A stretch of 64,000 nt of DNA from Candidatus Saccharimonadales bacterium. Lineage in GTDB: Bacteria > Patescibacteriota > Saccharimonadia > Saccharimonadales > UBA10212. Of this stretch, positions 14,425 to 46,893 are shown piece after piece. The first letter of the stretch is position 1. Every line of letters begins with the position of its first letter. Under the pieces are notes generated by a model that made no database searches, had not been told where the DNA came from, and worked only from the letters and a program-made list of their open reading frames with translations. The translations under genes and the position numbers were made by a program. Where the stretch lies: NCBI GenBank assembly GCA_038245195.1, contig JBBRSU010000001.1, positions 128,121 through 192,120 of the forward strand, in the 5' to 3' direction.

Positions 14425-15870
14425 CTATCGGGCTCCGCCACCACGGAGCACTACACGCACGGTCTTTGCCAGAATCATCAAATCCATCCAAATGCTCCAG
14501 TTCTGGACGTAAAACAAATCGAGCTTACGCCGCTCTGCAAAGCTAATATCTCGCCTGCCAGACACTTGAGCCAGACCCGTTAAGCCAGACTTCACTGCCA
14601 GGATCAGATCTTTCTTGTCGTATTCATTCAGCTCCGATATTTGCAGAGCGCGAGGTCCGACAAAGCTTATGTCTCCCTTAAAGATATTTATAAGCTGAGG
14701 CAGCTCATCTAAGCTTGATCGACGAAGCACTCGACCAATTCCACTAATCCGAGGGTCGTTAGGAATTTGGTCACCAGCTTGTCTATATTTTTCAATTAAA
14801 TCCCGTCGGCCCATTTTTTCAAAAGCTTCCTCTGGTGTCAGACCACTATATTTTTTTAAGTGTGTTCGGAATTTATATATCTTGGCAGTGCTACCAAAGC
14901 GGGTCAAACGAGGATCTTTATAAACGATCGGTCCTCGAAAATCGAAAATCTTCACCATTAATCCAATAAGTATCATCATTGGAACCCCCGGTATAAGCAT
15001 TGCTAGGCTTAGTATTAAATCACTGATTCTTTTTACTATTCGGCCCCAGCCGATTAGGGCAGTCTGGTGGACCGCAATAACTGGTACTGATGAACGGAAC
15101 AGCTCCACGGCAATATTGCCGACAAATAGTTCACTATTGCCCGGTACGAAGCGGTAGGAGATATGGTTAGTTTGAGTATAATCTAGAATTTCGTTATTAC
15201 GGCTGGCGGCGGCAAATAGTTCGGTTTGAACTACTCCGTGAATATCCGCCGCTTTTAAATGCTTAACAGCATCCTCGAATGAACCAAAGACCCTCAAATG
15301 AGGATACCGCTTCACAGCTTGGTCTTTATCGGCGACAACGCCAACAATCCGATAGCCAGAAACTTTATAATCATCTAGAAAATCTATTAGCTCAACTGTA
15401 ATCCGAGTGTTACCAACCAGCAGAAGATTGGTTATTCCGACATCGTAACTATACAGCCAAGCCCGTGTGCCGCGCGCGAAGTTACGAAACGAGGCTAGGA
15501 AAATAAAAGCCAAGCTAAATCCATAAATTGGAACCAGTTTAGAAGGAAATACTATCCGATTGGAAAAGTAGGCATAGCTAGTTACAAACAGCAGGCCGAT
15601 AAATGAGCCAATTAGTAAGCGGCCTAGCTCTACAAACCGCTTTTCCTGGATACTTGTGCCATACAACCCCATCAGAGCGAAGAAAGTTATCCAAAACGGT
15701 AAAAGCAATAAAAAAATACTTAAGTAAGTCGCTGCATGAAGTGGATGAGCTACAGGTGCAGCGCTTAAGTGGGTTCTTAAGATGTAAGCCGCCACAAAAG
15801 CCGCCACTAGAGCCAAAGCATCGCCCACCACCAGGATAAATCCATAAATGAGCGAAGCGTTACTTTTCAT
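14425..15870 (-). CDS. polyprenyl-phosphate sugar-phosphotransferase (WbaP/exopolysaccharide priming transferase family)
   Basis: An N-terminal polytopic region is followed by the C-terminal bacterial sugar transferase domain: DELPQLINIFKGDISFVGPRAL and DLFYVQNWSIWMDLMIL. Confidence 0.85.
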   Translation of the reverse strand: MKSNASLIYGFILVVGDALALVAAFVAAYILRTHLSAAPVAHPLHAATYLSIFLLLLPFWITFFALMGLYGTSIQEKRFVELGRLLIGSFIGLLFVTSYAYFSNRIVFPSKLVPIYGFSLAFIFLASFRNFARGTRAWLYSYDVGITNLLLVGNTRITVELIDFLDDYKVSGYRIVGVVADKDQAVKRYPHLRVFGSFEDAVKHLKAADIHGVVQTELFAAASRNNEILDYTQTNHISYRFVPGNSELFVGNIAVELFRSSVPVIAVHQTALIGWGRIVKRISDLILSLAMLIPGVPMMILIGLMVKIFDFRGPIVYKDPRLTRFGSTAKIYKFRTHLKKYSGLTPEEAFEKMGRRDLIEKYRQAGDQIPNDPRISGIGRVLRRSSLDELPQLINIFKGDISFVGPRALQISELNEYDKKDLILAVKSGLTGLAQVSGRRDISFAERRKLDLFYVQNWSIWMDLMILAKTVRVVLRGGGAR

Positions 15871-18530: not shown

Positions 18531-19046
18531 ATGGATTCAATAATTATATTCGGTGCCAAGTTCTTATTCGTGCTAGTGCCCGTGCTTTTTGTGGTTGCGT
18601 TATATCAAGCTAGTAAAAAACACCAGAAACAGCTTATTGTAGCGGTGGTTGTAGCTGTAATTGTGGCTGCCATCGCTGATAAGATCTTGAGCAAACTTTA
18701 TTACGATCCCAGGCCTTTTGTGACTCATCACCTAAAACCTCTAGTGGCCCATGCCGCTGATAACGGTTTTCCCTCCGAGCACACCCTTTTTTCAATCACA
18801 ATCAGTAGCGTGCTTTATGCCTATCGAAAACGCCTAGGACTATTAGCCCTGGGCGTCTCGATGATAGTTGGTATTGCTAGAATAGCTGCTCATGTCCACT
18901 CACCGATAGATATTTTAGGTGCAATCGCTATCGGTGCTGGCTCAGCCTATATTGGCGTTTGGGTAGCTGCTAAATACTTAGCTAAACACTCAAAGAAGCT
19001 AAACGCTACGCCGACCCACAATCATATTGTAGATAAACACCACTAG
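18531..19046 (+). CDS. PAP2-family phosphatase (undecaprenyl-diphosphatase/BcrC-like)
   Basis: The PAP2 motifs are KxxxxxxRP (KLYYDPRPF), PSEHT (FPSEHTLFS) and SRxxxxxHxxxD (ARIAAHVHSPIDILGA). Confidence 0.8.
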   Translation: MDSIIIFGAKFLFVLVPVLFVVALYQASKKHQKQLIVAVVVAVIVAAIADKILSKLYYDPRPFVTHHLKPLVAHAADNGFPSEHTLFSITISSVLYAYRKRLGLLALGVSMIVGIARIAAHVHSPIDILGAIAIGAGSAYIGVWVAAKYLAKHSKKLNATPTHNHIVDKHH

Positions 19047-19405: not shown

Positions 19406-20347
19406 TTATCCGCGGTCGATCAGCCCAGCAGCGGCAGAGGGATGGTTCGCAATGAACCGCTCCCAGCTGGCGCCGCGGGCACTCAGCCAGCCGGCGAACT
19501 CATCAGTACTTCGGAAAGTACGGCCGTCCCAGAGCAAGCCCTGGGCTTTGACCGTTCCCCTAGCCTGTGTGAGTCGATGGCTGTGAGAATTGTTGGGCGA
19601 TGTAGCTGTATTGCTTATGGCGATTGTTGCACTTGAGCACTGGTTATCGACGACGTTTGGGTCTGAAACCGTCGTTGTACCTACGCACGCTCGATTGGTT
19701 AGTGTGCCGGGCGAGTCAGCCCGAGCAACAATGGACACCATCACATGTTGTCCGGCACTCAGAGTGCTGAACGAACAGCTGATGGTTTGGTTGCCTACCC
19801 CTCCAACGACGGAACAGGCTCCCTGGGTAGTCGTGACCTGCTCGGCACTCAATAGCTCCATCTGCGGTGGCAGAGAATCATTGAGGCTCACATCGGTCGC
19901 ATTACACTCAGGACTCCCACTATTGAAGACATCCAGAGTGTAGTTGACCATCGAACCCAGACCGTAGCTGGAGGCTCCGGCGGTGTTGATGACGCCAATG
20001 TCTGCCGTCGGAGTCACTTCGCAGTAACTCGGCGGTCGAGCAGTTGGCGGTACTACAACCGGCGTCGTAGTAATCGTTGTAGCCGTCGGTGGTAGTTGGG
20101 CATCAGGGTCATTGTTGTCATCCGTGACACTTCCGGGGGTATCCGGAGGTGTCGGCGGGTCAGCGTTGGCCCCACTGTCGCAGGCATCACCGGAACAGAC
20201 GATGGTTGGATTGTCCGGGATGTCGCTACCGCAAACGGTTATTCCTTGGACCGTTATGCAACCCTTGCTGTTCGCCACAGCGTTGTCCGCCATGAACCCC
20301 AGGATACCAAGGGCACTTACTGTCACTAGAAGCAGAAACTTTTCCAT
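19406..20347 (-). CDS. secreted DUF11/CARDB-like repeat-domain protein (GC-rich, probably foreign)
   Basis: It has the signal peptide MEKFLLLVTVSALGILGFMADNAVA, a P/T-rich linker, then MVNYTLDVFNSGSPECNATDVSLNDSLPPQMELL...TISCSFSTLSAGQHVMVSIVARA. That last stretch fits the conserved-repeat (DUF11) pattern YTLxVxNxGxxxAxxVxLxDxLP. A hand count of line 20101-20160 gives 36/60 GC. Confidence 0.6.
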   Translation of the reverse strand: MEKFLLLVTVSALGILGFMADNAVANSKGCITVQGITVCGSDIPDNPTIVCSGDACDSGANADPPTPPDTPGSVTDDNNDPDAQLPPTATTITTTPVVVPPTARPPSYCEVTPTADIGVINTAGASSYGLGSMVNYTLDVFNSGSPECNATDVSLNDSLPPQMELLSAEQVTTTQGACSVVGGVGNQTISCSFSTLSAGQHVMVSIVARADSPGTLTNRACVGTTTVSDPNVVDNQCSSATIAISNTATSPNNSHSHRLTQARGTVKAQGLLWDGRTFRSTDEFAGWLSARGASWERFIANHPSAAAGLIDRG

Positions 20348-20355
20348 GACCGCCT

Positions 20356-21135
20356 CTAGATAATCGACGGGCTGTAGTCCCAGAAAATCACCGTGCCGGC
20401 GCTGTTTACCTTAACTAGCACCCACGGGTAAATCGTCTGGCTGTTGACTCCCGGAACGGGAGAAGTGACGGTCATAGGCAGCTTGATCTTAGCGAAAAAA
20501 CAGCCATGAGACCGCCAATGGCCGTGAACGGTGCATCCGTAGACCCCAGTCTTAAAGTACCTCGAGTCCGAGAGATCCGCCATGTTGTACTTAATGAAGG
20601 CTCTCTCATCGGTTACTGATGCGCTGGCTAGTGGCCGCGAGTCGAACGTCAAGTAGCCGTTGTGGTTCGTGCTCCAGTCCACCTTCAAGTGCAGGCGGTA
20701 GAGCGTGAAGCCACCGAGCGGGTAGTGCCCACGGTGCCAGACGTCGACTGACTCGTGGCCGGGTTCCGAGGCGTAGCCCATGTTCTGGTCTACAGCTTGG
20801 TTCCAGCTGACCCCGCCGCTGAAGCCTTCATCCTTGTTGGAATTGACGAACCCCGTAGAGATCGCCAAGAACCCAGCCAGGATTAGGACTAGTAGCTGGA
20901 CACGCCAGGCGTTTTTCCAACCGGTAAGGATCAGTCCCAGGGCTGCCAGAGTCAGAGCAACCAGGCCGAAGCCGAAGCTGCCCACCATGCCCGCCCAGTC
21001 CCCCACCTGCAAGAGCAGGTAGGTTCCCAGGGACATCGCGGCAATGATGGTGAGAACCGTAGCGATGGTCCACACCAAGATTGCAAGTGTTGCTTTAAGA
21101 ACAGATGGCATTTTGCTTCCCTTCGTCTTTGACAA
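20356..21135 (-). CDS. GC-rich polytopic membrane protein with C-terminal extracytoplasmic beta-rich domain, unknown function
   Basis: 259-aa ORF starting at TTG 21135. The more likely start is the ATG at 21111 (MPSVLK), which is preceded by GAAGGGAAG. It has four N-terminal TM segments. It lies 9 nt from the DUF11 gene on the same strand. Confidence 0.55.
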   Translation of the reverse strand: MSKTKGSKMPSVLKATLAILVWTIATVLTIIAAMSLGTYLLLQVGDWAGMVGSFGFGLVALTLAALGLILTGWKNAWRVQLLVLILAGFLAISTGFVNSNKDEGFSGGVSWNQAVDQNMGYASEPGHESVDVWHRGHYPLGGFTLYRLHLKVDWSTNHNGYLTFDSRPLASASVTDERAFIKYNMADLSDSRYFKTGVYGCTVHGHWRSHGCFFAKIKLPMTVTSPVPGVNSQTIYPWVLVKVNSAGTVIFWDYSPSII

Positions 21136-25492: not shown

Positions 25493-25831
25493 ATGACTAC
25501 ACACCAACTTCAGGTAGCCACTCAGCCATTTAACTCAATCGTCGCCGGCATAAAAACTATTGAGTCTCGACTATTCGATGATAAACGTAAAACTATCAGA
25601 CTAGGCGATGAGATTATTTTTGCTAATCGAGAAGACCCAGCACAAACAGTATCAACACGAGTAATTGGTCTACTGAACTACCGAGACTTCCACAACCTTT
25701 TTAGTCATAATGACCCACTTAAGTTCGGTGGCGAGAGTGTTGAGTGGCTCGAGAACCAAATCAATGAGTTTTACAGTGTCGATGATCAAGTACAGTATGG
25801 GGTTGTCGGCATTGAGTTTGAACACATGTAG
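25493..25831 (+). CDS. ASCH (PUA-like) domain protein
   Basis: 112 aa. LQVATQPFNSIVAGIKTIESRLFDDKRKTIRLGDEIIF...YGVVGIEFE follows the ASCH beta-barrel pattern. Confidence 0.6.
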   Translation: MTTHQLQVATQPFNSIVAGIKTIESRLFDDKRKTIRLGDEIIFANREDPAQTVSTRVIGLLNYRDFHNLFSHNDPLKFGGESVEWLENQINEFYSVDDQVQYGVVGIEFEHM

Positions 25832-25918: not shown

Positions 25919-27262
25919 TTGACCACATCATTGGTCAACGACAAGGTTATCGTCCGCCCTGCGGCAGCCGATGACTTCGAGTGGGTGGCCGATCTCATGG
26001 TGCGGGCTCTGAGCCCGTTCTACGGAGGTGACCACCGTGCGCACGCACAGAGGATCTTCGACACGCACATGGAAGGAGGCATCGATCACGTTGGTCACTT
26101 CTCGGCTGGACAGTACATGTTCATCGCGGAGCAGAGTGGCCAGCCGCTCGGCCTTATCCACGTCGTCGAGAAGAAGCAAGAGACGGTGAAGATCAGTCCA
26201 CTGATCGTCAGCCCCGACTACCGGGGCAAGCTGGGAATCGGAAGCGTGCTACTCAAGCACGCCGAAGACTTCGCCCACGAGCTTGGTGCTCGTCAGCTGT
26301 ACTGCACAGTCGCTTCACCTAACCAGAAGGCGCTGGACTTCTTCCTCCGGAAGGGGTTCCGCATCACTGGCACAGCGAAGGATCACTACAAGCAGGGCAT
26401 CAATGAGCACATGCTCTACAAGGAGCTGGGCGACGAGCCTGGCTACGACGCCCCCAACGTGTCGGTGATTCCGTTCAATGAGGAGAAGCACGGCAACGCC
26501 GCGCGACACCTCATCCTCTCGCAGATGAGTGACATCTTCCGCGGTGTAGACGACGACTGGGTTGACGCCCTGTTCGCCGGCTACAAGCGAAGGACAAGCT
26601 CTGATGTCAACAGCAAGTACAAGATCGTCTTCGTCGCCGAGAGCGGTGGCGAGGTTGTCGGCGTTGCTGGGGCCACCCCCAAGAAGGGTGAACCCATCAA
26701 GTTGATGCCACTCGTGGCTTCTTCTGAGGTGGCATTTGAAGCGCTCGTCATCGACCTCCAGGGGCTTCTGATGGACCACGGCCACAAGCTGTATGCCCAC
26801 CTGGTTCCGGAACCATGGCAGGTCGCATCTCTCCAGAGTCACGGCTGGTCGCTTGAAGGTGTGTTCCCGGGTGGGTACGCACCGAACAGCGTCGTTCAGC
26901 AGTGGGGCTTCAACTTCAACAAGGAAGGAACGACTGTGAGGAAGCTACGTATCAAGTACCCGTACTTCCGCGACATCATGTCCGGGAAGAAGTCGCTCGA
27001 GGTACGAGTTGGGTACGACAACATCAAGAAGTTTCGCGAGGGCGAGCTCCTGCAGCTCGAAACCAGCCGAACGTCGGGCGTCGTCCGGATCAAGTCGATC
27101 CGGATCTACGACAACTTCGCTGATATGCTGGCGATCGAGCCGTGGCGCGAGATTGTGCCGCAGGTCGACAGCCAGGAGGCGGCAGTGAAACTCCTGCGGG
27201 AGATCTACCCCGTCAACAAGGAGCGTCTCGGCGTACACGTCATCGAGGTCGAGAAGCAGTAG
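25919..27262 (+). CDS. GC-rich fusion protein: two GNAT acetyltransferase-like domains plus C-terminal ASCH domain
   Basis: The TTG start follows GGAGGTGTACC. GNAT region: IVSPDYRGKLGIGSVLLKHAEDFAHELGARQLYCTV...ALDFFLRKGFRITG. A second GNAT-like half spans ~190-330. The C-terminus LRIKYPYFRDIMSGKKSLEVRVGYDNIKKFREGELLQL...LGVHVIEVE is ASCH-like. Line 26401-26460 is 37/60 GC by hand count. Confidence 0.65.
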   Translation: MTTSLVNDKVIVRPAAADDFEWVADLMVRALSPFYGGDHRAHAQRIFDTHMEGGIDHVGHFSAGQYMFIAEQSGQPLGLIHVVEKKQETVKISPLIVSPDYRGKLGIGSVLLKHAEDFAHELGARQLYCTVASPNQKALDFFLRKGFRITGTAKDHYKQGINEHMLYKELGDEPGYDAPNVSVIPFNEEKHGNAARHLILSQMSDIFRGVDDDWVDALFAGYKRRTSSDVNSKYKIVFVAESGGEVVGVAGATPKKGEPIKLMPLVASSEVAFEALVIDLQGLLMDHGHKLYAHLVPEPWQVASLQSHGWSLEGVFPGGYAPNSVVQQWGFNFNKEGTTVRKLRIKYPYFRDIMSGKKSLEVRVGYDNIKKFREGELLQLETSRTSGVVRIKSIRIYDNFADMLAIEPWREIVPQVDSQEAAVKLLREIYPVNKERLGVHVIEVEKQ

Positions 27263-27380
27263 GGTAAGACAGGGTTCACACCCCTAAATAGTGCGAGTGA
27301 CCTGGGCTAGTGTCACTGATACCCGATCTAAGGTGTCGAACAACTAGCCTGTTTTTCTTTGGTTCAAATTTTAACGGTTC

Positions 27381-27594
27381 GGTCTAGGAACCCAGTCGGG
27401 TTTCACGCCGCTCGCTTCTCATATAGGCTTACGGTCGAATCTAGAACCGAATAACAGAAGGGAAGAGTCAGTATTAAAGCTATTTGATTGGTTCCAACCG
27501 TTTCTGAAAGTATAGGAACCGAACTCGGACTGCTAACAGGAGTGAGACTTTATGGAGAAAGTATCAAAAATAAGAAAGACCGGTCTAGGAACCT
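27381..27594. repeat. array of four copies of a 10-12 bp motif (GGTCTAGGAACC / TMTAGRAACC) next to the tRNA-Asn 3' end
   Basis: The copies are ggtctaggaacc at 27381-27392, gaatctagaacc at 27437-27448, agtataggaacc at 27509-27520 and ggtctaggaacc at 27583-27594. Start-to-start spacings are 56, 72 and 74 nt. Complementary GGTTC(C) half-sites lie at 27361, 27376 and 27490. Confidence 0.7.
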
Positions 27595-27619
27595 GGTCTA
27601 CCTCTGTTGATGCTTGGTC

Positions 27620-27694
27620 TGGCTCCGGAGGCCGGATTCGAACCGGCGACCTGGGGATTAACAGTCCCTCGCTCTACCGCTGAGCTACTCCGGA
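27620..27694 (-). tRNA. tRNA-Asn (anticodon GTT), CCA encoded
   Basis: The reverse complement is TCCGGAG TA GCTC AGCGGTA GAGC G AGGGA CTGTTAA TCCCC AGGTC GCCGG TTCGAAT CCGGC CTCCGGA G CCA. It forms a full cloverleaf with a 7-bp acceptor stem, a T33-GTT-A37 anticodon loop and the TTCGAAT T-loop. Confidence 0.92.
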
Positions 27695-28828: not shown

Positions 28829-29000
28829 AATTTAATGAGAAAAGTACTACAAAAATGTGAAGCAGACCGTGGTATTATTAAATTCTTAACAAATGGGTTG
28901 CTGGAAGTTAGTGAAAATCTAACACTGTGCCGCAACGGTGATGCGCTTTTAAGCGATAAGTCCGATACAGCTTTTTAGTAAATTTGCTCCCGAGCAGGAG

Positions 29001-29025
29001 AAGTACTTAACTTATCAAGTATTTT
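29001..29025. repeat. degenerate copy of the TACTTAAC/GTTAAGTA palindrome family
   Basis: aagtacttaacttatcaagtatttt has an intact left arm and 2 changes in the right arm. It sits in the divergent intergenic region 28809-29056. Confidence 0.6.
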
Positions 29026-29056: not shown

Positions 29057-30475
29057 TTGGAAACAAGCGAAAAATTAATTGAACGAACTAGGCCCAGGCT
29101 AGCCTGTGAAATCTATGATCAGCCGACAATGGAACAGCAAGCTTGGCTATTAATTAATTCGCGTGACCAAATCGAGCACGACCGCTGGGAACAAGAACCA
29201 AGTATAAATGCTAGAACCGCATTATTCGAGGCCCTTACAGCCAAAGGCCATCTATCCAGAATTGAATTTAATGAACCTCCAGAGTTAACCAACCAACGAA
29301 CTCTTCAAAGATTGATAAATGGTTGGGCTGATAGTCTGCCAGACTGGGAAAAACAACGCCGGTTTTCAGAAATTGTCGAGGAACTAACGATACATGAGGT
29401 CTATGAAGATATTAAAGCCGGTCTGTTGCCTGAAGATACCATAATTATCACTATCTCCAATTTTCCGCAGGGCGTTTCGGAGCAAGAAGCCACCCAAAAC
29501 GGTTATGGGGTACTGAATCAAAAAGGGATGACCCGAACAACCGCCTTTGAAGATGAGTTTAGAGTATTGGAGCAAGCGTCTAGGAGCAATAGTAACGACG
29601 GCAGTGCCGAGCGTTTCTTCTCAGCTCAAGGTCTTGTAGCTGAGCAGGGGGCTAATCAGCTATTGGCTAATCAGATTATAGCTACCAAACGTGATTTCCC
29701 GGACGGTGTAGTAAGCATCCAACAAATTTTAGACAGCTACTCTGGACCAAATGTTATTTACGGGGAAAATCGCCATCAAATGGATTTTAATGTTCCGGAA
29801 TATTATGAGCTTAGAGATATATCCGCCCAACGAGAGTTACAAGCCGAAAGTTTTATAAAAATACTAGAGAACTATGAGCGGCAGTTAAATATTAGCTACA
29901 ATGCTGGGCATATAAACTATGACCAGAAACTTTCAGCCTTATATATAAAACGCAAAGAACTGGTAGCTCAGATATGTTTGCTTTGTCCTGATTATGCCAA
30001 GGATGCTATGGGTGAACGATCGGCTGAATATATTAAGCAAGCGTCATATGCCATGGCCGCCGGCAATGATTCGGCCGGTATGCAGCACATGGAAATGGCA
30101 GTATCAGTTGCCGACTCTCGGGCCGGAGCGGTTTGCGGTGGTAGTGGGCTAGAATCGAATGACATTAACAATAATTCCAACTCCGATGTTAAGCTCATCT
30201 ATCTTGAAGCCAAAGAAGAGCGCAAAAACTGGAAATGGGCTCGCGGAGTTTGTGTAGTTAAAGAGTGTCCTAGCCGCCCGGTAAAAACCGAAGTTGGTCC
30301 GTGTAGCGTCTGCCGAAATTGCCAAAATATATTCGATAAAGGCGATACTCCCAAGCAAATTTATAAAGTCTTAGGTTTCTTGGATATTTTGTTTGAATCG
30401 CTGGCCGAATTCAATCGAAAATACGATGCCGAGCAAGCTGAAAAGAAAGCTAATAAGTCGAAGTTAGCTGCGTAA
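29057..30475 (+). CDS. hypothetical protein (472 aa) with C-terminal Cys-rich zinc-ribbon-like motif
   Basis: Long ORF. The start is uncertain: TTG at 29057 has no SD. The C-terminus reads CVVKECPSRPVKTEVGPCSVCRNC. No family recognised. Confidence 0.5.
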   Translation: METSEKLIERTRPRLACEIYDQPTMEQQAWLLINSRDQIEHDRWEQEPSINARTALFEALTAKGHLSRIEFNEPPELTNQRTLQRLINGWADSLPDWEKQRRFSEIVEELTIHEVYEDIKAGLLPEDTIIITISNFPQGVSEQEATQNGYGVLNQKGMTRTTAFEDEFRVLEQASRSNSNDGSAERFFSAQGLVAEQGANQLLANQIIATKRDFPDGVVSIQQILDSYSGPNVIYGENRHQMDFNVPEYYELRDISAQRELQAESFIKILENYERQLNISYNAGHINYDQKLSALYIKRKELVAQICLLCPDYAKDAMGERSAEYIKQASYAMAAGNDSAGMQHMEMAVSVADSRAGAVCGGSGLESNDINNNSNSDVKLIYLEAKEERKNWKWARGVCVVKECPSRPVKTEVGPCSVCRNCQNIFDKGDTPKQIYKVLGFLDILFESLAEFNRKYDAEQAEKKANKSKLAA

Positions 30476-30499
30476 AAATACTTAACTTGTTAAGTATTT
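30476..30499. repeat. palindrome family copy (exact 24-mer aaatacttaacttgttaagtattt)
   Basis: It has 11-bp perfect arms around TT. It fills the whole 22-nt gap between two convergent genes, whose stops are at 30473-30475 and 30498-30500. Confidence 0.9.
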
Positions 30500-32252
30500 A
30501 AGATTTGGCACGGCTAAGGCTGGCTAGGCTGCCCACTACGCTATGGCCCAGTTTTTTACGCTTAACTTTGCGCTGTTCCACGCCGTGCTGCTTCTTAAGA
30601 TAGCGGATGTGTTGTTCGCGGATTCGTTTAAAGTCCGATTTAGCAAAGCCGGACTTTTTTACAAAAGCCCCGATTTTTTCACCGCCAATAAAGTGCGGTA
30701 ATATCACATAGCTGGCGCCCTCATCGTAAAGTTTGCCGGCTTGTTTGGGGCTGTCGGCTTCGGCAATCACCACAGCTTCAGAATTTTTACGTTTCAAATA
30801 ATCTAGTAAAAACGAATTTGCCACCGGATCGGTGATGGTTGAAACAATTAGCTTGGCTCTGCTGATGTTGGCTTCGTCTAGCAGTTCTACGTCGGTACTA
30901 TCACCATAAATATGGGGGATTTTGCGCTGAATTAGGACATCGATAATTTCCGGGTCATAATCTACCACCACAAAACTACCTTTCAGTTGACGAAAAACTT
31001 TCACAAACTCATGGCCGCCTTTTTGATAGCCAAACAACACCATTTCGTAATTTTTAGGCTGAGCCGGCTCGCTGTGAGTATGGCTGCGCTCGAAAATATC
31101 CAAAAATCGTTCTAGCACACTAAAAATTCGCTCGCTAAAGATAATTAAATAAGATGATGCAGCGATAGAAACTAGGGCGATAAAAGTAATTGCTGTGACT
31201 AAACTGGAATCGATTAAGCCACGGCGATGGGCCAGCAGAACAAGCACAATTGAGAACTCACTAACTTGGGCCAGGGCCACCGAGGCTTTAAAACTGGTGC
31301 GCTTAGTGTAGCCAAGATAGCCCATTACGGCCATTGAAACTAAGGGCTTGGCAATAATAACTATTAAAGCTGAAACTAAAATTACTGGGAACATAGGGCC
31401 GATATGGTTGAGGTTGAGATTGGCACCCAATGCAATGAAGAAAACGATGACAAAAAAATCACGCAGTGGTCGCAAGCGAGCAGCAATTTCTTGGGCGTAG
31501 GGCTGAGTGGCCAGGCAAATACCGGCCAGCAGAGCCCCAATTTCGCTAGATAAGCCAATTTTTTGAAACAAGGCAGCGGCACCCAAGCCCCAAGCAATCG
31601 CAAATAAAAACAAAAATTCCTGACTGCCGGAAATTAGTCGATGATAACGTGGCAGTAACCGGTCGCTGATCCAGTAAATCACCAAACCCAAGACCCCGCC
31701 TTTTATAGCCAGCACAATTGTCGAACCAAGGGCTAGCGATTTGGTGTTGCCGGCCGAGGTTATCACTACCAACATAATCGCGAATAAGTCCTGAACCAAA
31801 GACACACTAATGGCAATTTTGCCGTATAGACGTGATTGCTCACGCTTATCACTTAGCATTTTTAGAATGATAATCGTGCTAGAAACTGCCAGACTGGCAC
31901 CCAAAAAAGCCGCCCCAGTGGAGCTTAAGCCTAGGGCTTTACCAAAAACCCAACCAAGGGCTGTGATAACTCCAACTTGGACTGAAGCCACATAGGTAGC
32001 AGTTTTACTAACCTCACGGACAATTTGCGGGTTTAACCCCAAGCCGATGATGAACAACAACAGGGCAATGCCTAGATCGGAAAATAGAGCCAAAGTGTCT
32101 GGTGATTTGGCAACATGGAATACCGCCGGTCCAACAATAATGCCAGTTAGGATGTGGCCAATAATTAGTGGCTGGTTGATGGCCCGCATCATTAACGCCA
32201 TAGCCGCACCGATTACGATAATTAAGCTAAGACCGGAAAATACGGTATCCAT
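30498..32252 (-). CDS. cation:proton antiporter (CPA2/Kef-type) with C-terminal RCK/TrkA-N domain
   Basis: 584 aa. About 12 TM segments form a Na_H_exchanger-like domain. This is followed by MVLFGYQKGGHEFVKVF...VVDYDPE, a Rossmann-type RCK domain. Confidence 0.8.
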   Translation of the reverse strand: MDTVFSGLSLIIVIGAAMALMMRAINQPLIIGHILTGIIVGPAVFHVAKSPDTLALFSDLGIALLLFIIGLGLNPQIVREVSKTATYVASVQVGVITALGWVFGKALGLSSTGAAFLGASLAVSSTIIILKMLSDKREQSRLYGKIAISVSLVQDLFAIMLVVITSAGNTKSLALGSTIVLAIKGGVLGLVIYWISDRLLPRYHRLISGSQEFLFLFAIAWGLGAAALFQKIGLSSEIGALLAGICLATQPYAQEIAARLRPLRDFFVIVFFIALGANLNLNHIGPMFPVILVSALIVIIAKPLVSMAVMGYLGYTKRTSFKASVALAQVSEFSIVLVLLAHRRGLIDSSLVTAITFIALVSIAASSYLIIFSERIFSVLERFLDIFERSHTHSEPAQPKNYEMVLFGYQKGGHEFVKVFRQLKGSFVVVDYDPEIIDVLIQRKIPHIYGDSTDVELLDEANISRAKLIVSTITDPVANSFLLDYLKRKNSEAVVIAEADSPKQAGKLYDEGASYVILPHFIGGEKIGAFVKKSGFAKSDFKRIREQHIRYLKKQHGVEQRKVKRKKLGHSVVGSLASLSRAKS

Positions 32253-37182: not shown

Positions 37183-38577
37183 ATGGAGCGAATTTTAATT
37201 AAGGATACTGTTGATAAAGTTGGCGACAAAGTTATTGTTAAGGGTTGGGTGCACGCTCGGCGCGACCACGGAAAATTAATTTTTATAGATTTACGCGACC
37301 GTGGTGGGTTACTCCAAGTAGTTTTTTGGGGCGGTGGTGATACCAAGCTTTTCAAACAAGCCGAAGAACTACGCAGTGAATTCGTAGTTGCAATTACCGG
37401 CACTGTCCAAAAACGCCAAGACAACCAAATTAATCCAGATTTACCAACCGGTACAGTTGAGCTAGCCGCCGAGAAGCTAGAAATTATTAGCCAAGCCGAA
37501 ACCCCGCCATTCGAAATCGCCGACTCCAATGTTCCAGAAGCCGGTGAAGAATCTCGCCTAAAATATCGATACCTAGACTTACGTCGCGATAAAATGCAAC
37601 ACAACATCCGCTTGCGTAGTGCCTTTGTCCAAAAATGCCGCGAATATTTATTCAGCCAAGATTTCGTAGAAATCGAAACACCGTTATTAACCGAGGCCAC
37701 ACCGGAAGGCTCGCGCGATTTCGTAGTGCCATCCCGCTTAAACCAAGGTAAGTTCTATGCTTTGCCACAGTCGCCCCAGCAATACAAACAGCTATTAATG
37801 ATTGGCGGGTTTGAGCGCTACTTCCAAATTGCCCGGGCTATCCGCGACGAAGACCCGCGGGCCGACCGTGGCTTCGAACACACTCAGGTAGATATCGAAA
37901 TGAGCTTTGTCGAACAAGATGACGTTATGAACACAGTCGAAGCGATGATGATTAAAACCGTTGAATCACTGGGCTTTAAAGTCAAAGACAAGCCGTTTCC
38001 GCGTTTTACATATGCCGAGGCAATGGAAAAATTCGGAGCTGACAAGTTCGATTTACGCAGCGGCGAAGAAAAGAAAGACCCTAAACTGCTGGCTTACGCC
38101 TGGGTATATAAGTTTCCATTTTTTGAAAAAACCGAAGAAGGCGGTTGGACCTTTACCCATAACCCGTTCAGCATGCCAGTCCCAGAGCATCTTGATGATT
38201 TGTTAAACAAAAATAACATCGAGAATATTCTAACCACCCAGTATGACCTGGTTTGTAACGGCTATGAATCGGGCGGTGGCAGTATCCGGGCCCACCAGCC
38301 AGAAATTCTTAAAGCCGTATACGAAGTTATGGGCTATTCTGCCGAGAAAATCCAAGACAGTGTCGGGCATATGCTGGAAGCCTTTAAATATGGCACGCCG
38401 CCACACGGTGGTATCGCTCTGGGCGTGGAGCGCAACCTAATGAACTTAACCGGCGAAAGCTACCTGCGCGAAGTCCAAGCCTTCCCAATGACCGGCAAAG
38501 GTCAAACCGCTGTTATGAAGGGCCCTAAACCACTTACCGATGCCCAGCTCAAAGAACTCGGGCTAAAAATTTCCTGA
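37183..38577 (+). CDS. aspS: aspartate--tRNA ligase, bacterial-type motifs but lacking the GAD insertion domain
   Basis: It has an OB-fold N-terminus (VIVKGWVHARRDHGKLIFIDLRD). Motif region: FYALPQSPQQYKQLLMIGGFERYFQIARAIRDEDPRADRGFEHTQVDIEMSF. C-terminus: GGGSIRAH...PPHGGIALGVER. It is only 464 aa: FGADKFDLR is followed directly by ...FPFFEKTEEGGWTFTHNPFSMP. Confidence 0.9.
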   Translation: MERILIKDTVDKVGDKVIVKGWVHARRDHGKLIFIDLRDRGGLLQVVFWGGGDTKLFKQAEELRSEFVVAITGTVQKRQDNQINPDLPTGTVELAAEKLEIISQAETPPFEIADSNVPEAGEESRLKYRYLDLRRDKMQHNIRLRSAFVQKCREYLFSQDFVEIETPLLTEATPEGSRDFVVPSRLNQGKFYALPQSPQQYKQLLMIGGFERYFQIARAIRDEDPRADRGFEHTQVDIEMSFVEQDDVMNTVEAMMIKTVESLGFKVKDKPFPRFTYAEAMEKFGADKFDLRSGEEKKDPKLLAYAWVYKFPFFEKTEEGGWTFTHNPFSMPVPEHLDDLLNKNNIENILTTQYDLVCNGYESGGGSIRAHQPEILKAVYEVMGYSAEKIQDSVGHMLEAFKYGTPPHGGIALGVERNLMNLTGESYLREVQAFPMTGKGQTAVMKGPKPLTDAQLKELGLKIS

Positions 38578-38675
38578 CGAGTTAAGTATCATATACAACA
38601 GTTTAAATTAGATATATAAGGGAGTCTTGCACTGGCCCGGTAAGGAAAATTCCCTTGACCGAACCAGCGCGCTGA

Positions 38676-38694
38676 CTCGTTGAACGGTTATGCA
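38676..38694. repeat. left arm of 19-bp imperfect inverted repeat flanking the desaturase gene
   Basis: ctcgttga acggt tatgca. Its reverse complement, tgcata accgt tcaacgag, matches 39818-39836 (tgcata ggttg tcaacgag) at 6/6 plus 8/8 outer positions. Confidence 0.6.
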
Positions 38695-39797
38695 TTAGCC
38701 GGGCTCGCTGCAGGGTTCTGGCCCATGTTCTTTAGGTGGCGGTAGTGGGCTTTGACAGCACTCCAAAGAGTCGGCTGGCAGTTGTAGGGCAGACCGTGAC
38801 GCAAACAGGCCTGTTTAACAATGGCCGCGATGGCCGGATAGTGCACGTGTGCTGTGTGCGGAAACAGATGGTGTTCCAGCTGGTAGTTGAGCCCACCCAT
38901 GAACCAAGTAATTGCCCGGTTGCCCGGACAAAAATCACTGGTCGCCAGAACCTGATGGACCGCCCAGGAGCTAGGTAGCTTGCCATTGCTGTCGGTGTCC
39001 TGATCTGACGTGAACTGTGCCTCGTCAGTGCAGTGCGCCAGTTGGAAGGTGGCCGCCAGTATGAAACTGAACAGCCAGCTAAGACTCAGATAAGCAATTG
39101 CGAATCCCAGTGCACCGTGCCACGTCAAGTGGAGCAGCAGTGGTATCACAAAGGCCCAACCGATGAAGATCAGCTTGCCGATGGCGAACGCACCGGCTTC
39201 GAAAGCACTGGGCTTTTTCAGCTCGAAGCGGGTAATCCGACCACGAATCATCACGCTGATGTCGCCAAAGCTCTGCCACTTCAGCGTCAGTAGGCCGTAG
39301 CCAAACCACAGGTACAGGTGTTGCCACTTATACCAGGGCTTCCATTCTTGGGTAGACGTCATGCGGGCGAACGGTGGCTGGTCGATGTCTTCGTCCAGGC
39401 CGTCGAAGTTTGGATAGGTATGGTGAGCCAGGTTGTGTTTGACTCGCCACGTGTAGCTACTTCCTCCCAGGACTTCCAACACATATCCAGCCTGACGGTT
39501 GACCCGCCGGCTGCGGCTGAAACCACCGTGGTTGCCATCGTGCATGATGCAAAAGGCGGCGGCCAGAGTGCCGAGTACGAAGGGTACACCGTACAGGATG
39601 ATCTGCCACCAGCTGTTGCCCATAATTACCAGGGCCAAGTACCAGCTGATTGTCCAAGCAACGATGAACGCTGCTTTGCGATGCAAGCGACGGAAACCCG
39701 CTTGGACGACATCAGCCTTGAGGTAGGAGTTCACCTCCACTTGAAGTTCTTTCCAAAAATCCTCTTTGACTCTGAAGGTAATTTTGGCTACCGGCAT
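38688..39797 (-). CDS. membrane fatty-acid desaturase (three His-box, front-end/acyl-lipid desaturase-like), GC-rich
   Basis: The His boxes are HDGNHG, HNLAHH and QLEHHLFP. It has 4 TM segments, and the RBS AGGGGGTGA lies before the ATG at 39797. Line 39481-39540 is 38/60 GC by hand count. Many shadow ORFs appear in all frames. Confidence 0.8.
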   Translation of the reverse strand: MPVAKITFRVKEDFWKELQVEVNSYLKADVVQAGFRRLHRKAAFIVAWTISWYLALVIMGNSWWQIILYGVPFVLGTLAAAFCIMHDGNHGGFSRSRRVNRQAGYVLEVLGGSSYTWRVKHNLAHHTYPNFDGLDEDIDQPPFARMTSTQEWKPWYKWQHLYLWFGYGLLTLKWQSFGDISVMIRGRITRFELKKPSAFEAGAFAIGKLIFIGWAFVIPLLLHLTWHGALGFAIAYLSLSWLFSFILAATFQLAHCTDEAQFTSDQDTDSNGKLPSSWAVHQVLATSDFCPGNRAITWFMGGLNYQLEHHLFPHTAHVHYPAIAAIVKQACLRHGLPYNCQPTLWSAVKAHYRHLKNMGQNPAASPANA

Positions 39798-39817
39798 TGT
39801 CTTTCACCCCCTAACAT

Positions 39818-39836
39818 TGCATAGGTTGTCAACGAG
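39818..39836. repeat. right arm of the inverted repeat flanking the desaturase gene
   Basis: tgcataggttgtcaacgag lies 21 nt upstream of the desaturase start codon. See the left arm at 38676-38694. Confidence 0.6.
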
Positions 39837-39903
39837 CTAAAGCAAGTGTAGCACCGTATGCTCATGAGTTGCGATAGCCAGTTCGTAGTACAATAAATTT
39901 CCA

Positions 39904-40656
39904 ATGACGTGGCACGAATTACAACCGGTAGCGGTTTTTTTGGTAACCTTTGTAGCATCGGCGTTTAGCGGCATGGCTGGCGGTGGCGGAGGCTTTATTG
40001 TAAACCCGTTTTTAATTGCCTTGGGCCTAACACCACAGCAAACCGTTGCCACCGCTAAGTTTGTAAGTTTTGGATTAACGGGGGGCAGTATTCTGGCATT
40101 CCGCGAGCGCATGCTACAAAACAAAAGATTTAGTTTGTTCATCATAGTTTTATCGGCGGTGATTGGGATTATAGCTAGCCTTTTACTCAGGAAAGTAGAT
40201 AACAAAAGCCTTCAGCTGCTAATGGGCATCATCACTTTAGCCATGGTGCCATTTATGCTAAAAAAAGCCCGTGGTCTAAAAAGTACAAAAGTAAATCAAA
40301 TATCAAAAGTCCTCGGTGCAATTTCTCTAGCATTCATTTTATTCCTACAGGGAATATTAAGTGGCGGGATAGGCTCTTTAGTCTCAGCAATATTTATAGT
40401 TTTTTTCGGCACTACGGCCTTGGAAGCCAATATCCTAAAACGAAAAGCATCATTAGTGCTGAACGTTGTGATTGTGGTGAGTCTGCTTGGTAGCGGTTTG
40501 ATAAACTACAAATTTGGATTTTTTGGCATGGCCGGCGGATTGCTAGGTGGCTACGTTGGCTCGCGGATTGCCATAAAAAACGGTGATGAATTCGCCAAGT
40601 ATGCCCTACTGGTATTTATGGTAGTGTCTGGCGTGTGGTTAGTTGTCACTGCTTAA
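39904..40656 (+). CDS. TSUP (TauE/SafE, DUF81) family anion exporter-like membrane protein
   Basis: 250 aa with 8 TM segments. Gly-rich motifs (FSGMAGGGGGFIVNP; GMAGGLLGGYVGSRIA) are typical of TauE/SafE. Confidence 0.7.
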   Translation: MTWHELQPVAVFLVTFVASAFSGMAGGGGGFIVNPFLIALGLTPQQTVATAKFVSFGLTGGSILAFRERMLQNKRFSLFIIVLSAVIGIIASLLLRKVDNKSLQLLMGIITLAMVPFMLKKARGLKSTKVNQISKVLGAISLAFILFLQGILSGGIGSLVSAIFIVFFGTTALEANILKRKASLVLNVVIVVSLLGSGLINYKFGFFGMAGGLLGGYVGSRIAIKNGDEFAKYALLVFMVVSGVWLVVTA

Positions 40657-40658
40657 GT

Positions 40659-40666
40659 TGTATAAT
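40659..40666 (+). promoter_or_regulatory. -10 element TGTATAAT, 6 nt upstream of ATG 40673 (leaderless-type)
   Basis: ttgtataat is followed by taagca and then ATG. No SD. Confidence 0.4.
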
Positions 40667-40672
40667 TAAGCA

Positions 40673-41200
40673 ATGAATCCGACTGAGTTTGAAGACTCCA
40701 TAAAAATTCCATCACCACAAGAATTTGAAGGTCCTAACGGCCTTCTAGTTACAGAGCTTACAAACTGGGACTCCCAAGAATTATTTAATTTCGTCAAAGC
40801 CAATGGTGGTGAAAAGTTTAGCCCGGAGTTAGAGCAAATACATACAGAGTATGAAGCTTTGAAAATGATTCAAAATAGAGAATTCTCAACTTATGGAGCG
40901 AGACTTGGAAAAGAGGAGCCATTGGCTGCGATTATTACGGTAGGCCAAGAAGCTGAGGACCGAGTTAGTATCGGCTACGTAGTTGGGAAAGATTTCAGAG
41001 GCCAGGGAGTTGCAACTGGTGCTATTAAAACGATTAGTCAAAATTATCTAATGATTCCTGGCATAAATACCATCAGATGTTACGTTAATCCAAAAAACAT
41101 CGCCAGCCGAGGACTGTTAGAAAAATGCGGTTTTCATTTACAAGGTGAAATCTTATACAAAAATGTGTTTTATGACTTAGATAAGCCTAAAAATACTTAA
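40673..41200 (+). CDS. GNAT-family N-acetyltransferase (RimJ/RimL-like)
   Basis: IGYVVGKDFRGQGVATGAIKTI...NIASRGLLEKCGFHLQG matches GNAT motifs A and B. Confidence 0.7.
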   Translation: MNPTEFEDSIKIPSPQEFEGPNGLLVTELTNWDSQELFNFVKANGGEKFSPELEQIHTEYEALKMIQNREFSTYGARLGKEEPLAAIITVGQEAEDRVSIGYVVGKDFRGQGVATGAIKTISQNYLMIPGINTIRCYVNPKNIASRGLLEKCGFHLQGEILYKNVFYDLDKPKNT

Positions 41201-41216
41201 CTTGTTAAGTATTTTT
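41189..41216. repeat. palindrome family copy with 13-bp arms (aaaaatacttaac tt gttaagtattttt)
   Basis: It has perfect arms. The gene's TAA stop (41198-41200) lies inside the left arm. The A5/T5 flanks give a bidirectional terminator-like shape. Confidence 0.9.
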
Positions 41217-41246
41217 ATACAAAGATTGTTTGTATAATTATTGTAA

Positions 41247-41603
41247 ATGGATCTGCTATTGATTCTTTTAGGAATAATCGCCGGCGGGCTAGCCGGTTTA
41301 CTGGGTGTTGGTGGCGGAATTATAATTGTACCGGCACTGATTTATATCTTTCACTTTAGCCAAAAGACTGCCCAGGGCACCACACTGGCCTTACTTGTAC
41401 CGCCAATCGGTATACTTGCAGCCTATGCATATTACAAAACCGGCCACGTTAATATTCGCGCGGCATTGTTTATTGTGGCAGGTTTCTTGATAGGTAGTTT
41501 TCTGAGTGCCCAGTTCACAAATAGTATTAACGAAGCATATCTTAGTAGAATTTTTGGGACATTTTTATTAGTGGTTGCTATACGAATGATAATTTGGGGA
41601 TAA
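41247..41603 (+). CDS. half-size TSUP (TauE/SafE) family membrane protein
   Basis: 118 aa with 4 TM segments. GGLAGLLGVGGGIIIVPALIYIF is the TauE N-terminal motif. Confidence 0.6.
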   Translation: MDLLLILLGIIAGGLAGLLGVGGGIIIVPALIYIFHFSQKTAQGTTLALLVPPIGILAAYAYYKTGHVNIRAALFIVAGFLIGSFLSAQFTNSINEAYLSRIFGTFLLVVAIRMIIWG

Positions 41604-41670
41604 AAATCACTTCCGCCAACGATGCTGTACATTTATAGATGAAGTAAGCCTTGTTCCCCTAGATGGTATT

Positions 41671-46323: not shown

Positions 46324-46893
46324 GTGGCATATATAACGCAATCTTTTGACGATGAGATAGTCCGGCTATTGAATAACGGCGGAGTTGGTTTATTGCCAAG
46401 CGACACGATTTACGGATTGTCTTGCCGAGCACTTGGTGAAGTGGCAGTAGAGCGACTTCATAAGCTGAAGGATCGCAGTGCCGGTAAGCCGTTCATCATT
46501 TTAATTTCGAATATAAAAATGCTTGACTTGTTAAGTATTTCTAAATCTCAAGCCGAACCAGCTTTTAAATACTGGCCGGGCGCACTAAGTGCAATCCTAG
46601 AATCTAAAGCCCCAAAATTTTTAACCCTCAATACGAACTCACTCGCAGTTCGTATGCCCAACCAACCAGACTTACTCAAGCTTATTGATAAAGTTGGGCC
46701 AATTGTTAGTACCAGTGCCAATCTAGAAGGAGGTAAGCCAGCACAGTCTGTGGCTGAAGCTAAATCTATATTTGCTGATAAGCTCGATTTTTATGTTGAT
46801 GTCGGCCCGCTGGATGGTTCGCAGTCGACGTTGGCGGCACTTAAGGACGGCCGGCTGGAAGTGATTCGCCAAGGGGCTGTTAGAATTAACTAA
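46324..46893 (+). CDS. tsaC: L-threonylcarbamoyladenylate synthase (YrdC/TsaC type)
   Basis: LPSDTIYGLSCRA, KLKDRSAGKPFIILI, PGALSAIL and VSTSANLEGGKP are YrdC/Sua5 family motifs. GTG start. Confidence 0.8.
   Translation: MAYITQSFDDEIVRLLNNGGVGLLPSDTIYGLSCRALGEVAVERLHKLKDRSAGKPFIILISNIKMLDLLSISKSQAEPAFKYWPGALSAILESKAPKFLTLNTNSLAVRMPNQPDLLKLIDKVGPIVSTSANLEGGKPAQSVAEAKSIFADKLDFYVDVGPLDGSQSTLAALKDGRLEVIRQGAVRIN
46517..46540. repeat. near-copy of the palindrome family inside tsaC coding sequence
   Basis: aaatgcttgacttgttaagtattt differs from the exact 24-mer at 2 left-arm positions. It encodes KMLDLLSIS. Confidence 0.6.

Follow-up and report, generated by a model that had tools for sequence, protein, structure and literature searches.

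The subject of this analysis is a gene for a membrane fatty-acid desaturase, located at positions 38688-39797 on the (-) strand of a 64-kb stretch of DNA (hereafter the window) from a Patescibacteria genome, together with an inverted repeat that an initial annotation had described as bracketing it. The explanation favored here, with moderate confidence, is that the gene belongs to a portable, self-contained unit that was acquired horizontally, encodes an acyl-desaturating enzyme, and gives rise to an mRNA whose two ends pair with one another. The unit, which would travel as a block, is made up of an extended -10 promoter, a leader of 41 nt that carries a strong Shine-Dalgarno sequence, the desaturase coding sequence (CDS), and a dedicated 3' stem-loop. 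The repeat would correspond to a long-range duplex formed between the 5' end of the mRNA and a region at or just past the stop codon. Because this duplex directly adjoins the 3' stem-loop, both ends of the message would be double-stranded in the manner of a panhandle.

Layout of the unit and proposed pairing of its ends

The aspS homologues that show 82-83% identity to the aspS of the window are from Candidatus Saccharimonadales. In a neighbor-joining tree, the desaturase sequences P0001-P0020, with the exception of P0019, form one clade that lies apart from the Gaiellaceae-like high-GC sequences. Ten loci of this clade were compared, namely the window, L081, L082, L086, L088, L090, L242, L243, L244, and L247, and their desaturases are 45-62% identical. 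The contexts of all nine of the other loci are low in GC, and their gene neighborhoods differ from each other. Named Saccharibacteria relatives of the BipA encoded by L088 are found at 86-88% identity, and L242 is syntenic with the window through DsbA (66%) and CBS (42%). More distant homologues from a metagenome scan (34-43% identity, among the matches listed) served as the control, with 56 loci for composition and 80 for the hairpin; there were no new clade members among them.

The order of the elements upstream of the gene is the same in all ten loci: an extended -10 box, a spacer of 6-7 nt, and then AGCTCGTTGACA or a close variant, positioned 33-48 nt ahead of the start codon, with a Shine-Dalgarno sequence after it. 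In the window the extended -10 box, TGCTACACT, conforms to TGnTAnnnT and is located at 39845-39853 on the (-) strand, as are all of the elements that follow. The region around it reads GGTGCTACACT and aligns with TTTGCTATGMT in the remaining clade loci. The 5' motif AGCTCGTTGACA (39827-39838) is predicted to make up the initial 12 nt of the mRNA and contains the 5' arm of helix A (39829-39837). Next is the 5' arm of helix B, TATGCA (39818-39823), which is the second block of the previously noted repeat, and then, within a 41-nt leader as read from the sequence, the Shine-Dalgarno element GGGGGTGA (39804-39811). At the distal end of the gene lies TGCATA (38689-38694), which serves as the 3' arm of helix B and shares positions with the stop codon (38688-38690). 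The stop codon is likewise inside this arm in L088 and L081. The 3' arm of helix A, TCAACGAGT, is at 38675-38683 and has a counterpart in nine of the ten loci. The downstream order in the clade is a 3' motif, TCAACGAGTC, which is found at the stop codon or no more than approximately 20 nt past it in nine of the ten loci, and next a long GC stem-loop with AAGACYC behind it. The hairpin is present in eight of the nine loci with the 3' motif, and the contig of L247 stops at the hairpin start.

Many genes of the window display TGnTAnnnT only 6-11 nt ahead of their start codons, and for this reason they are regarded as leaderless. Such genes include those at 5285-6223, 9026-9547, 9591-10490, 14425-15870, 18531-19046, and 25493-25831, aspS at 37183, and lepA at 54990. 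In a mostly leaderless genome the desaturase appears to be an exception, as its leader measures 41 nt and contains a strong Shine-Dalgarno sequence. From the -10 to start spacing of the leaderless genes, transcription of the desaturase would begin at approximately the A or G of AGCUCG. The mRNA is predicted to start at the 5' motif, which would place helix A at its very 5' end. The TTGACA within the 5' motif was considered as a -35 box and was rejected, given that no -10 box occurs 16-18 nt further on in any locus.

The left arm of the inverted repeat, CTCGTTGA-ACGGT-TATGCA, extends from 38676 to 38694, and the right arm, TGCATA-GGTTG-TCAACGAG, from 39818 to 39836. The layout is 8-N5-6 with a span of 1161 bp; 14 of the 19 positions are complementary, and none of the five central ones are. 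The right arm comprises the 5' motif and the block next to it, and the left arm the 3' motif and the stop-codon block. The coordinates and the 14 matching positions reported in the initial annotation are correct. The left arm, however, does not lie outside of the gene, as the TATGCA block (38689-38694) reaches into the stop codon and the last codons.

Judged on the window alone, the repeat is not beyond chance. Indeed, there are 812 inverted pairs with at least 14 of 19 matches at spacings of 300-3000 bp in 16 kb of the window, the same scan yields eight scan windows in which two exact end blocks add up to 14 or more, and repeats of at least 14/19 flank four of 61 window genes. A better repeat (16/20; 38637-56 and 39775-94) flanks the same desaturase, and the figure of two matches versus 0.04 expected is post hoc. 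A dismissal of the repeat on the basis of these statistics was overruled by the comparison across loci: because the arms are conserved and covary in the homologous loci, the repeat is judged to be real. As to the concern that the arms might be frequent by chance, the 12-nt core motif occurs elsewhere at the chance rate only (six other matches in 2.6 Mb, with approximately 11 expected). There is a lesson as to method here, in that a repeat resembling chance in one genome gained significance only when loci were compared.

In the window helix A is composed of nine pairs, one of which is G-U (39829-39837 with 38675-38683), and helix B of six. Across the clade helix A measures 8-15 bp in nine of the ten loci and helix B 6-10 bp. 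For helix A, 69.6% of the alignment cells pair versus 22-37% when the 3' partner column is slid, and the covariation score over nine loci is 0.169 versus 0.120 ± 0.021 in shuffles, a value reached by eight of 500. Compensatory changes from G-C to A-U are observed in helix A of L086 and L244. The helix is longer in L090, L242, L243, and L247, and locus-specific extensions include GCTCATTGACATTTT / AAAATGTCAACGAGT in L090, CTCGTTACC / GGTAATGAG in L244, and TTTAGCTCGTTG / CAACGAGCTAAG in L243. Helix B is TATGCA/TGCATA in both the window and L088. In L081 (TGTATTCAC/GTGAATACA) and in L086 (TAAATTGCTC/GGGCAATTTG) it is built from unrelated sequences that are nevertheless complementary. With the core of helix A excluded, the cognate 5'/3' pairs are more complementary than the non-cognate ones (permutation P = 0.003). 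When the leader and the 3' region were cofolded, helices A and B formed beside an intact hairpin in seven of eight loci, and the gain for these seven was -7 to -13 kcal/mol. The long-range duplex contains 133 Watson-Crick pairs versus 16 G-U pairs.

The clade-specific GC-rich stem-loop occupies 38616-38678 in the window, with its arms at 38658-38672 and 38629-38641. Its outer stem, GAGTC/GACTC, employs the same GAG as does helix A. RNAalifold provided 13 consensus pairs, eight of them with compensatory changes, and the calculated stabilities range from -33 to -43 kcal/mol. A covariance model of the hairpin (R1), searched over 1.4 Mb, matched only at the 3' ends of clade desaturases; there was nothing else in 849 kb of Patescibacteria DNA, the window included, and no match in 556 kb around the 80 distant homologues among the matches listed. 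No U-tract adjoins the hairpin, and the conserved AAGACYC spacer separates it from A/U-rich sequence. Native terminators in this genome are quite unlike the desaturase hairpin: they are rich in AT and have U-tracts. A sigma-70/terminator consensus scan, which was uninformative overall, did not call the hairpin as a terminator. With Rfam 15 there was no match across 38560-39920 at E values up to 5; at the gathering threshold, the entire window contains one tRNA and one adenosylcobalamin (AdoCbl) riboswitch. At the level of the sequence comparison, then, the flanking elements are conserved, covarying, and specific.

The pairing would act in RNA, and an effect on stability or translation is proposed by analogy to known messages. 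In the Bacillus subtilis hbs mRNA, a 14-bp interaction in which the 5' untranslated region (UTR) pairs with the 3' UTR limits cleavage of the leader by RNase Y (PMC5737220). As in hbs (Braun, Durand and Condon 2017, PMC5737220), where the pairing of leader and 3' UTR amounts to ~14 bp, the desaturase mRNA would be monocistronic and carries a strong Shine-Dalgarno sequence. Protection of the leader from ribonucleases and a link to translation were proposed for hbs as they are here: the duplex would shield the 5' end and the leader from ribonucleases and would tie the life of the mRNA to its translation. Because the 3' arm falls within the ribosome footprint, a terminating ribosome would have to melt the duplex, and in this manner translation may be coupled to stability. 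Unlike the situation in hbs, the 5' arm of the desaturase starts with the nucleotide predicted to be the first of the mRNA, its 3' counterpart abuts or overlaps the stop codon, and a dedicated hairpin adjoins the duplex. In addition, the pairing, known here from sequence alone, is kept with covariation across proteins that are 45-62% identical. The functions of known 3' UTRs, that of hbs included, are reported to be usually not conserved, even between close relatives (PMC7821165).

Two other cases of 5'/3'-UTR interaction, icaR and RNAIII, are covered in the same review (PMC7821165). According to that review, the Staphylococcus aureus icaR mRNA (Ruiz de los Mozos 2013, in PMC7821165) pairs its own 3' and 5' UTRs, and the duplex can affect decay, as is envisioned for the desaturase. 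In icaR, a 3' motif (UCCCC) covers the ribosome-binding site and brings in RNase III. Such occlusion is not predicted for the desaturase since its Shine-Dalgarno sequence is 1-6 nt outside of the duplex (window, L081, and L086). If the pairing indeed acts in RNA, this would be a family-level panhandle mRNA with comparative support and a new cis-regulatory RNA motif from an uncultivated phylum. The two-helix duplex and the hairpin accompany a diverged gene into differing genomic neighborhoods, with compensatory changes.

The desaturase and the origin of its gene

The gene is intact and encodes a protein of 369 residues. Its initial assignment as a three-His-box desaturase was confirmed: the boxes are HDGNH (86-90), HNLAHH (121-126), and QLEHH (306-310), and the protein matches the PF00487 profile with an E value of 8.8e-36 and 124.4 bits (cutoff 29.7), residues 63-340 corresponding to profile positions 2-251 of 253. 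Residues H86, D87, H90, H121, N122, H125, H126, Q306, H309, and H310 are invariant in 24 homologues. Two hydrophobic stretches, 41-86 and 199-252, are predicted to form two pairs of transmembrane helices. The AlphaFold2 model (pLDDT 91.3, pTM 0.89) was compared with the Protein Data Bank (PDB) by Foldseek. The only match with an E value below 0.001 was a chain of the Chlamydomonas Ycf2/Orf2971-FtsHi complex (TM 0.62), and the next were AlkB alkane monooxygenases. As modeled, the protein matches the His-box membrane di-iron fold. A sequence search of the PDB revealed no relative.

A third box of the type QX2HH is typical of "front-end" desaturases. The score against the NCBIfam Delta5-DesA equivalog is 34 bits, far under the cutoff of 500. 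The best non-self match is 62% identical, the best named homologue (Gaiellaceae) is at most 44% identical, and the source annotations (PGAP, JGI) name the relatives acyl-CoA or linoleoyl-CoA desaturases. With the bacterial acyl-CoA/linoleoyl-CoA desaturase group of PF00487, which per annotation includes DesA3-like proteins, the window enzyme shares the HX3H, HX2HH, and QX2HH boxes, the four-helix membrane topology, and a length of ~360-370 residues without a fused cytochrome b5. Unlike that group, it belongs to a separate clade seen only in low-GC, Saccharibacteria-type contexts. A Pfam scan showed no cytochrome b5 domain fused to it, and no electron-donor gene, either reductase or ferredoxin, regularly adjoins it in the ten contexts.

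The protein is most plausibly a functional O2-dependent enzyme that acts on scavenged acyl chains. Genes for MMPL, PAP2, and lipid kinase proteins are near it in the window, and a GDSL lipase or ceramidase gene is near it in relatives. No fab genes, recombinase, or obvious reductase were found in the 64-kb window. Saccharibacteria are thought to lack fatty-acid synthesis. In a lipid-scavenging organism a plausible role for the desaturase is the remodeling of acquired acyl chains, and the occurrence of an O2-requiring desaturase in such bacteria suggests that some epibionts remodel host-derived lipids. In the searchable literature there is no description of a fatty-acid desaturase in Saccharibacteria or of the movement of such a trait between lineages; the present comparison suggests such movement.

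The gene is anomalous in its composition. For 62 open reading frames (ORFs) of the window, the mean GC is 0.447 (sd 0.042) and the mean GC at third codon positions (GC3) is 0.445 (sd 0.085), versus 0.553 and 0.67 for the desaturase. The initial annotation considered the gene to be richer in GC than its neighbors, aspS (0.474) and the TSUP gene (0.436), and its hand counts of 31/60 and 38/60 are right. For the CDS this is so, but the flanking intergenic regions are at background GC (0.445 and 0.434), and the excess is limited to the CDS. Each clade desaturase is 0.07-0.15 above its own flanks in GC, with a GC3 of 0.54-0.78. Relatives in which the gene lacked the repeats and had the composition of the backbone would have told against the initial proposal; those found have the same arms and a non-backbone GC. 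For the 56 distant homologues among the matches listed (flank GC 0.28-0.73), the difference between gene and flank is -0.01 ± 0.023, with a maximum of +0.047. Because these homologues track the GC of their flanks, the family has no intrinsic GC excess. The GC3 values of housekeeping genes in the window, dnaK and lepA among them, are ordinary, and its other GC-rich genes, including the ORFs at 19406-21135, are without the desaturase motifs and the hairpin.

The relative synonymous codon usage of the desaturase correlates at 0.71 with that of L246 genes and at 0.24 with that of the window's own genes. L246 is a syntenic Saccharimonadales relative with a GC content of 0.52 and an intergenic GC of only 0.41. 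Import from an L246-like genome would yield a GC-rich CDS with AT-normal UTRs, as is seen, the latter being explained by the AT-rich intergenic DNA of such a donor. The unit was probably transferred from a Saccharimonadales lineage, presumably one of higher GC. The cassette-like acquisition proposed at the outset is plausible as far as transfer is concerned, in light of the composition, the codon usage, and the variable neighborhoods. The arms, however, are not the ends of a cassette: they are internal to the conserved unit, downstream of the promoter and upstream of the co-conserved 60-nt hairpin.

Locus-specific direct repeats, with 14-17 matches in 16-19 nt, bracket the unit in four of nine loci (L242, L088, L243, and L082). 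They span from before the promoter to 4-11 nt past the hairpin or, in L082, past a plain terminator. Under the null, a direct-repeat score of 14/16 or better has a probability of 0.039 per locus. The window copy of the unit is without bracketing direct repeats. In L082, a 170-nt segment encoding a Lys/Arg-rich peptide of ~45 residues is duplicated (546-715 and 2783-2951, 91% identity). Its copies lie on either side of the desaturase, a DUF5678 gene, and a retropepsin-like gene, and a HicAB toxin-antitoxin pair adjoins. These segments were considered as attC sites and rejected, as they represent a duplicated small basic ORF. A phage or plasmid vector was likewise rejected: the best identities were 36% for viral contigs (mostly giant-virus bins), 38% for plasmids, and 29% for phages. 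When viral contigs were scanned for the patterns of the 5' and 3' motifs, there were chance matches only, with no desaturase and no hairpin.

The initial annotation had called for an empty site in related genomes, and no clean one was found. A search by way of aspS through 185,579 species genomes gave best matches of 67-69% identity, and 80 loci were without synteny or a nearby desaturase. The closest aspS homologue, 90% identical, is in L246, which is syntenic and without the desaturase. It does not provide a clean empty site because the whole aspS-MMPL interval differs, nor did a comparison of L242 with L246 anchored on the GDSL lipase.

The interval between the aminoacyl-tRNA synthetase (aaRS) gene and the MMPL gene is variable in three relatives. 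In the window (38578-41670) it holds the desaturase, TSUP, and GNAT genes and a TauE fragment; in L246 (10819-15116) cupin, OmdA, GDSL lipase, GNAT, and KGG genes; and in L242 (3628-7397) 2-hydroxyacid dehydrogenase, GNAT, GDSL lipase, and desaturase genes. The aspS gene of the window (37183-38577) is 90% identical to the L246 copy, and the neighboring proteins are 58-77% identical. The syntenic L242 has a different class-II aaRS at this position, only 28% identical, which suggests that the synthetase gene itself was exchanged or replaced in this lineage. The TauE fragment, a 118-residue ORF at 41247-41603 (+), covers only the first 109 of 237 profile positions, and the full-length TSUP gene lies ~600 nt upstream. 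The fragment represents either a second copy of TSUP/TauE that is truncated or one half of a split gene.

Alternative explanations

Several observations count against a transferred unit with pairing mRNA ends. Both the transcript start and the 3' end were deduced from sequence rather than mapped. The complementarity is unremarkable in any single locus (z = 1.3 for the window), and the sample consists of only nine to ten loci that are phylogenetically related. The energies of the duplex, -19.5 kcal/mol in the sense and -18.4 kcal/mol in the antisense (P = 0.25), do not discriminate between RNA and DNA, and the hairpin leans only weakly to the sense strand (five of eight loci, P = 0.16). L088 retains helix B with a degraded helix A, L082 has no 3' elements and a canonical terminator in their place, and the GAG of the 3' motif is able to pair instead with GACUC behind the hairpin. 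With respect to transfer, the desaturase is near a class-II aaRS gene in both the window and L242, and upstream of bipA in both L086 and L088; these partly conserved neighborhoods speak for an old residence in some cases. Finally, the GC excess is uniform across a deep clade, and no member was found in a GC-matched "home" genome.

These last points would also fit a desaturase that is an old, vertically inherited, and often lost Saccharimonadales gene whose GC3 excess is kept up by selection at the level of the CDS or the mRNA. The clade is both deep and monophyletic, all of its sampled members are GC-elevated against low-GC surroundings, the neighborhoods of the two locus pairs just named are partly common, the promoter is of the native type, and the GC excess stops at the limits of the CDS. 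This explanation is regarded as doubtful. The family lacks an intrinsic GC excess, the GC3 of the window housekeeping genes is ordinary, and the codon usage is in line with that of a higher-GC relative, in which the intergenic DNA is AT-rich as well. Moreover, the L086 and L088 desaturases are just 45% identical whereas the corresponding BipA proteins are 87% identical, direct repeats are present in four of nine loci, and the syntenic L246 is without the gene. A functionless chance match between the arms would be in keeping with the 812 comparable pairs in 16 kb, the four of 61 genes flanked equally well, and the z of 1.3. It is exceedingly improbable given that the arm positions are kept in nine to ten loci with proteins only 45-62% identical and with differing neighbors, that both helices covary, and that the motif is found elsewhere only at the chance rate. 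A shared operator, proposed initially, would make both arms binding sites, or a split operator, for one transcription factor, and in its favor the 5' motif (12 nt) and the 3' motif (11 nt) are conserved in sequence and orientation. It is very unlikely because helix B changes sequence wholly between loci and keeps its complementarity, as do the helix A extensions, a behavior expected of base pairing and not required of a protein site. Furthermore, neither arm is palindromic, the 3' arm overlaps the coding sequence or stop codon in several loci, and no regulator gene consistently adjoins.

The pairing could also matter in DNA, with the arms serving either as the recombination sites of an inversion switch or as folded single-stranded signals of a new mobile cassette. 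The duplex is nearly all Watson-Crick and equally stable in the antisense, and the unit is of foreign composition, in variable contexts, with direct repeats at four of nine loci. The placement of the arms between promoter and 3' hairpin also fits a switch; known examples (the fim switch and "invertons") likewise have short inverted repeats of 9-15 bp around a segment between fixed regulatory elements. Unlike those examples, the orientation relative to the promoter and hairpin is the same in ten of ten loci, no recombinase gene is nearby (nor is there an integrase or transposase in the 64-kb window or the ten contexts), and the helix B arms vary in sequence, which protein recognition sites do not. 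In addition, the fixed position of the 5' arm, 6-7 nt past the -10 box, has no explanation for a DNA site, and the arms, being internal to the conserved unit, are not termini. A role for the pairing in DNA is thus considered unlikely. With an integron cassette and its attC site the unit shares a single ORF that is foreign in composition, an inverted repeat reaching from the 5' junction to the start of a downstream imperfect hairpin, and variable contexts; it differs in having its own promoter and internal arms and in the lack of an integrase, attI, or cassette array. The attC reading was rejected since inspection of the aligned flanks by eye showed no RYYYAAC/GTTRRRY core pair bounding the hairpin. 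There is no GTTRRRY after the hairpin in any locus, GTTCAAC precedes it in the window only, and the 5' GTTGACA misfits GTTRRRY. A transposon with terminal inverted repeats was rejected as well, in that the promoter and 60-nt hairpin outside of the arms are co-conserved and no transposase was found; the flanking direct repeats, examined as target-site duplications, are 16-19 nt in length and lie beyond the promoter and hairpin. Quite unlikely is the particular proposal of a new kind of mobile cassette that is inserted in trans, leaves 16-19 bp direct repeats, and employs the repeat and hairpin as DNA signals. If true, such a cassette would spread an O2-dependent, lipid-remodeling desaturase among host-dependent Saccharibacteria unable to make fatty acids.

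Other features of the window

The window also contains envelope-polysaccharide genes and genes for PAP2, a DAGK-type lipid kinase, MMPL, and MurJ, along with hrcA-grpE-dnaK-dnaJ. Its strongest compositional outlier is a GNAT+ASCH fusion gene at 25919-27262 (+) with a GC of 0.589 and a GC3 of 0.78. The codon usage of this gene correlates at 0.84 with a 72%-GC actinobacterial-like locus and at -0.23 with the window's own genes. It is ~360 nt from a tRNA gene at 27623-27694 (-), and the spacer at 27290-27600 has three to four GGTTCGGTCTAGGAACC-like palindromes. The gene resembles an independent acquisition, beside a tRNA, from a donor of high GC. A third compositional island, 19406-21135 (-), is formed by a DUF11-repeat protein gene (GC 0.569) and an adjoining 259-residue ORF (GC 0.564, GC3 0.73) with no Pfam or NCBIfam match.

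The AdoCbl riboswitch, at 28876-29008 (+), scores 59 bits, above the gathering score, and precedes a 472-residue ORF at 29057-30475 (+). This ORF has no Pfam match, and L246 has a counterpart in the same place with 58% amino acid identity. Its product is a candidate for an uncharacterized cobalamin-related protein of Saccharibacteria, perhaps one involved in uptake. Several assemblies titled "uncultured Gammaproteobacteria" or "Pseudomonadales" (for example, L011, L016, L027, and L028) have an aspS that falls clearly among those of Patescibacteria, and the public records probably mislabel their taxonomy.

An AT-rich palindrome, AAAAATACTTAAC-TTGT-TAAGTATTTTT, is found between genes at 30473-30502, 41188-41217, and 46514-46543 in the window and at 2704-2742, 5934-5972, and 12310-12335 in L246. 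It is 92-100% identical between the two genomes, whereas their coding DNA is only 67-80% identical. The palindrome is probably a native bidirectional terminator or else a strongly constrained protein-binding site.

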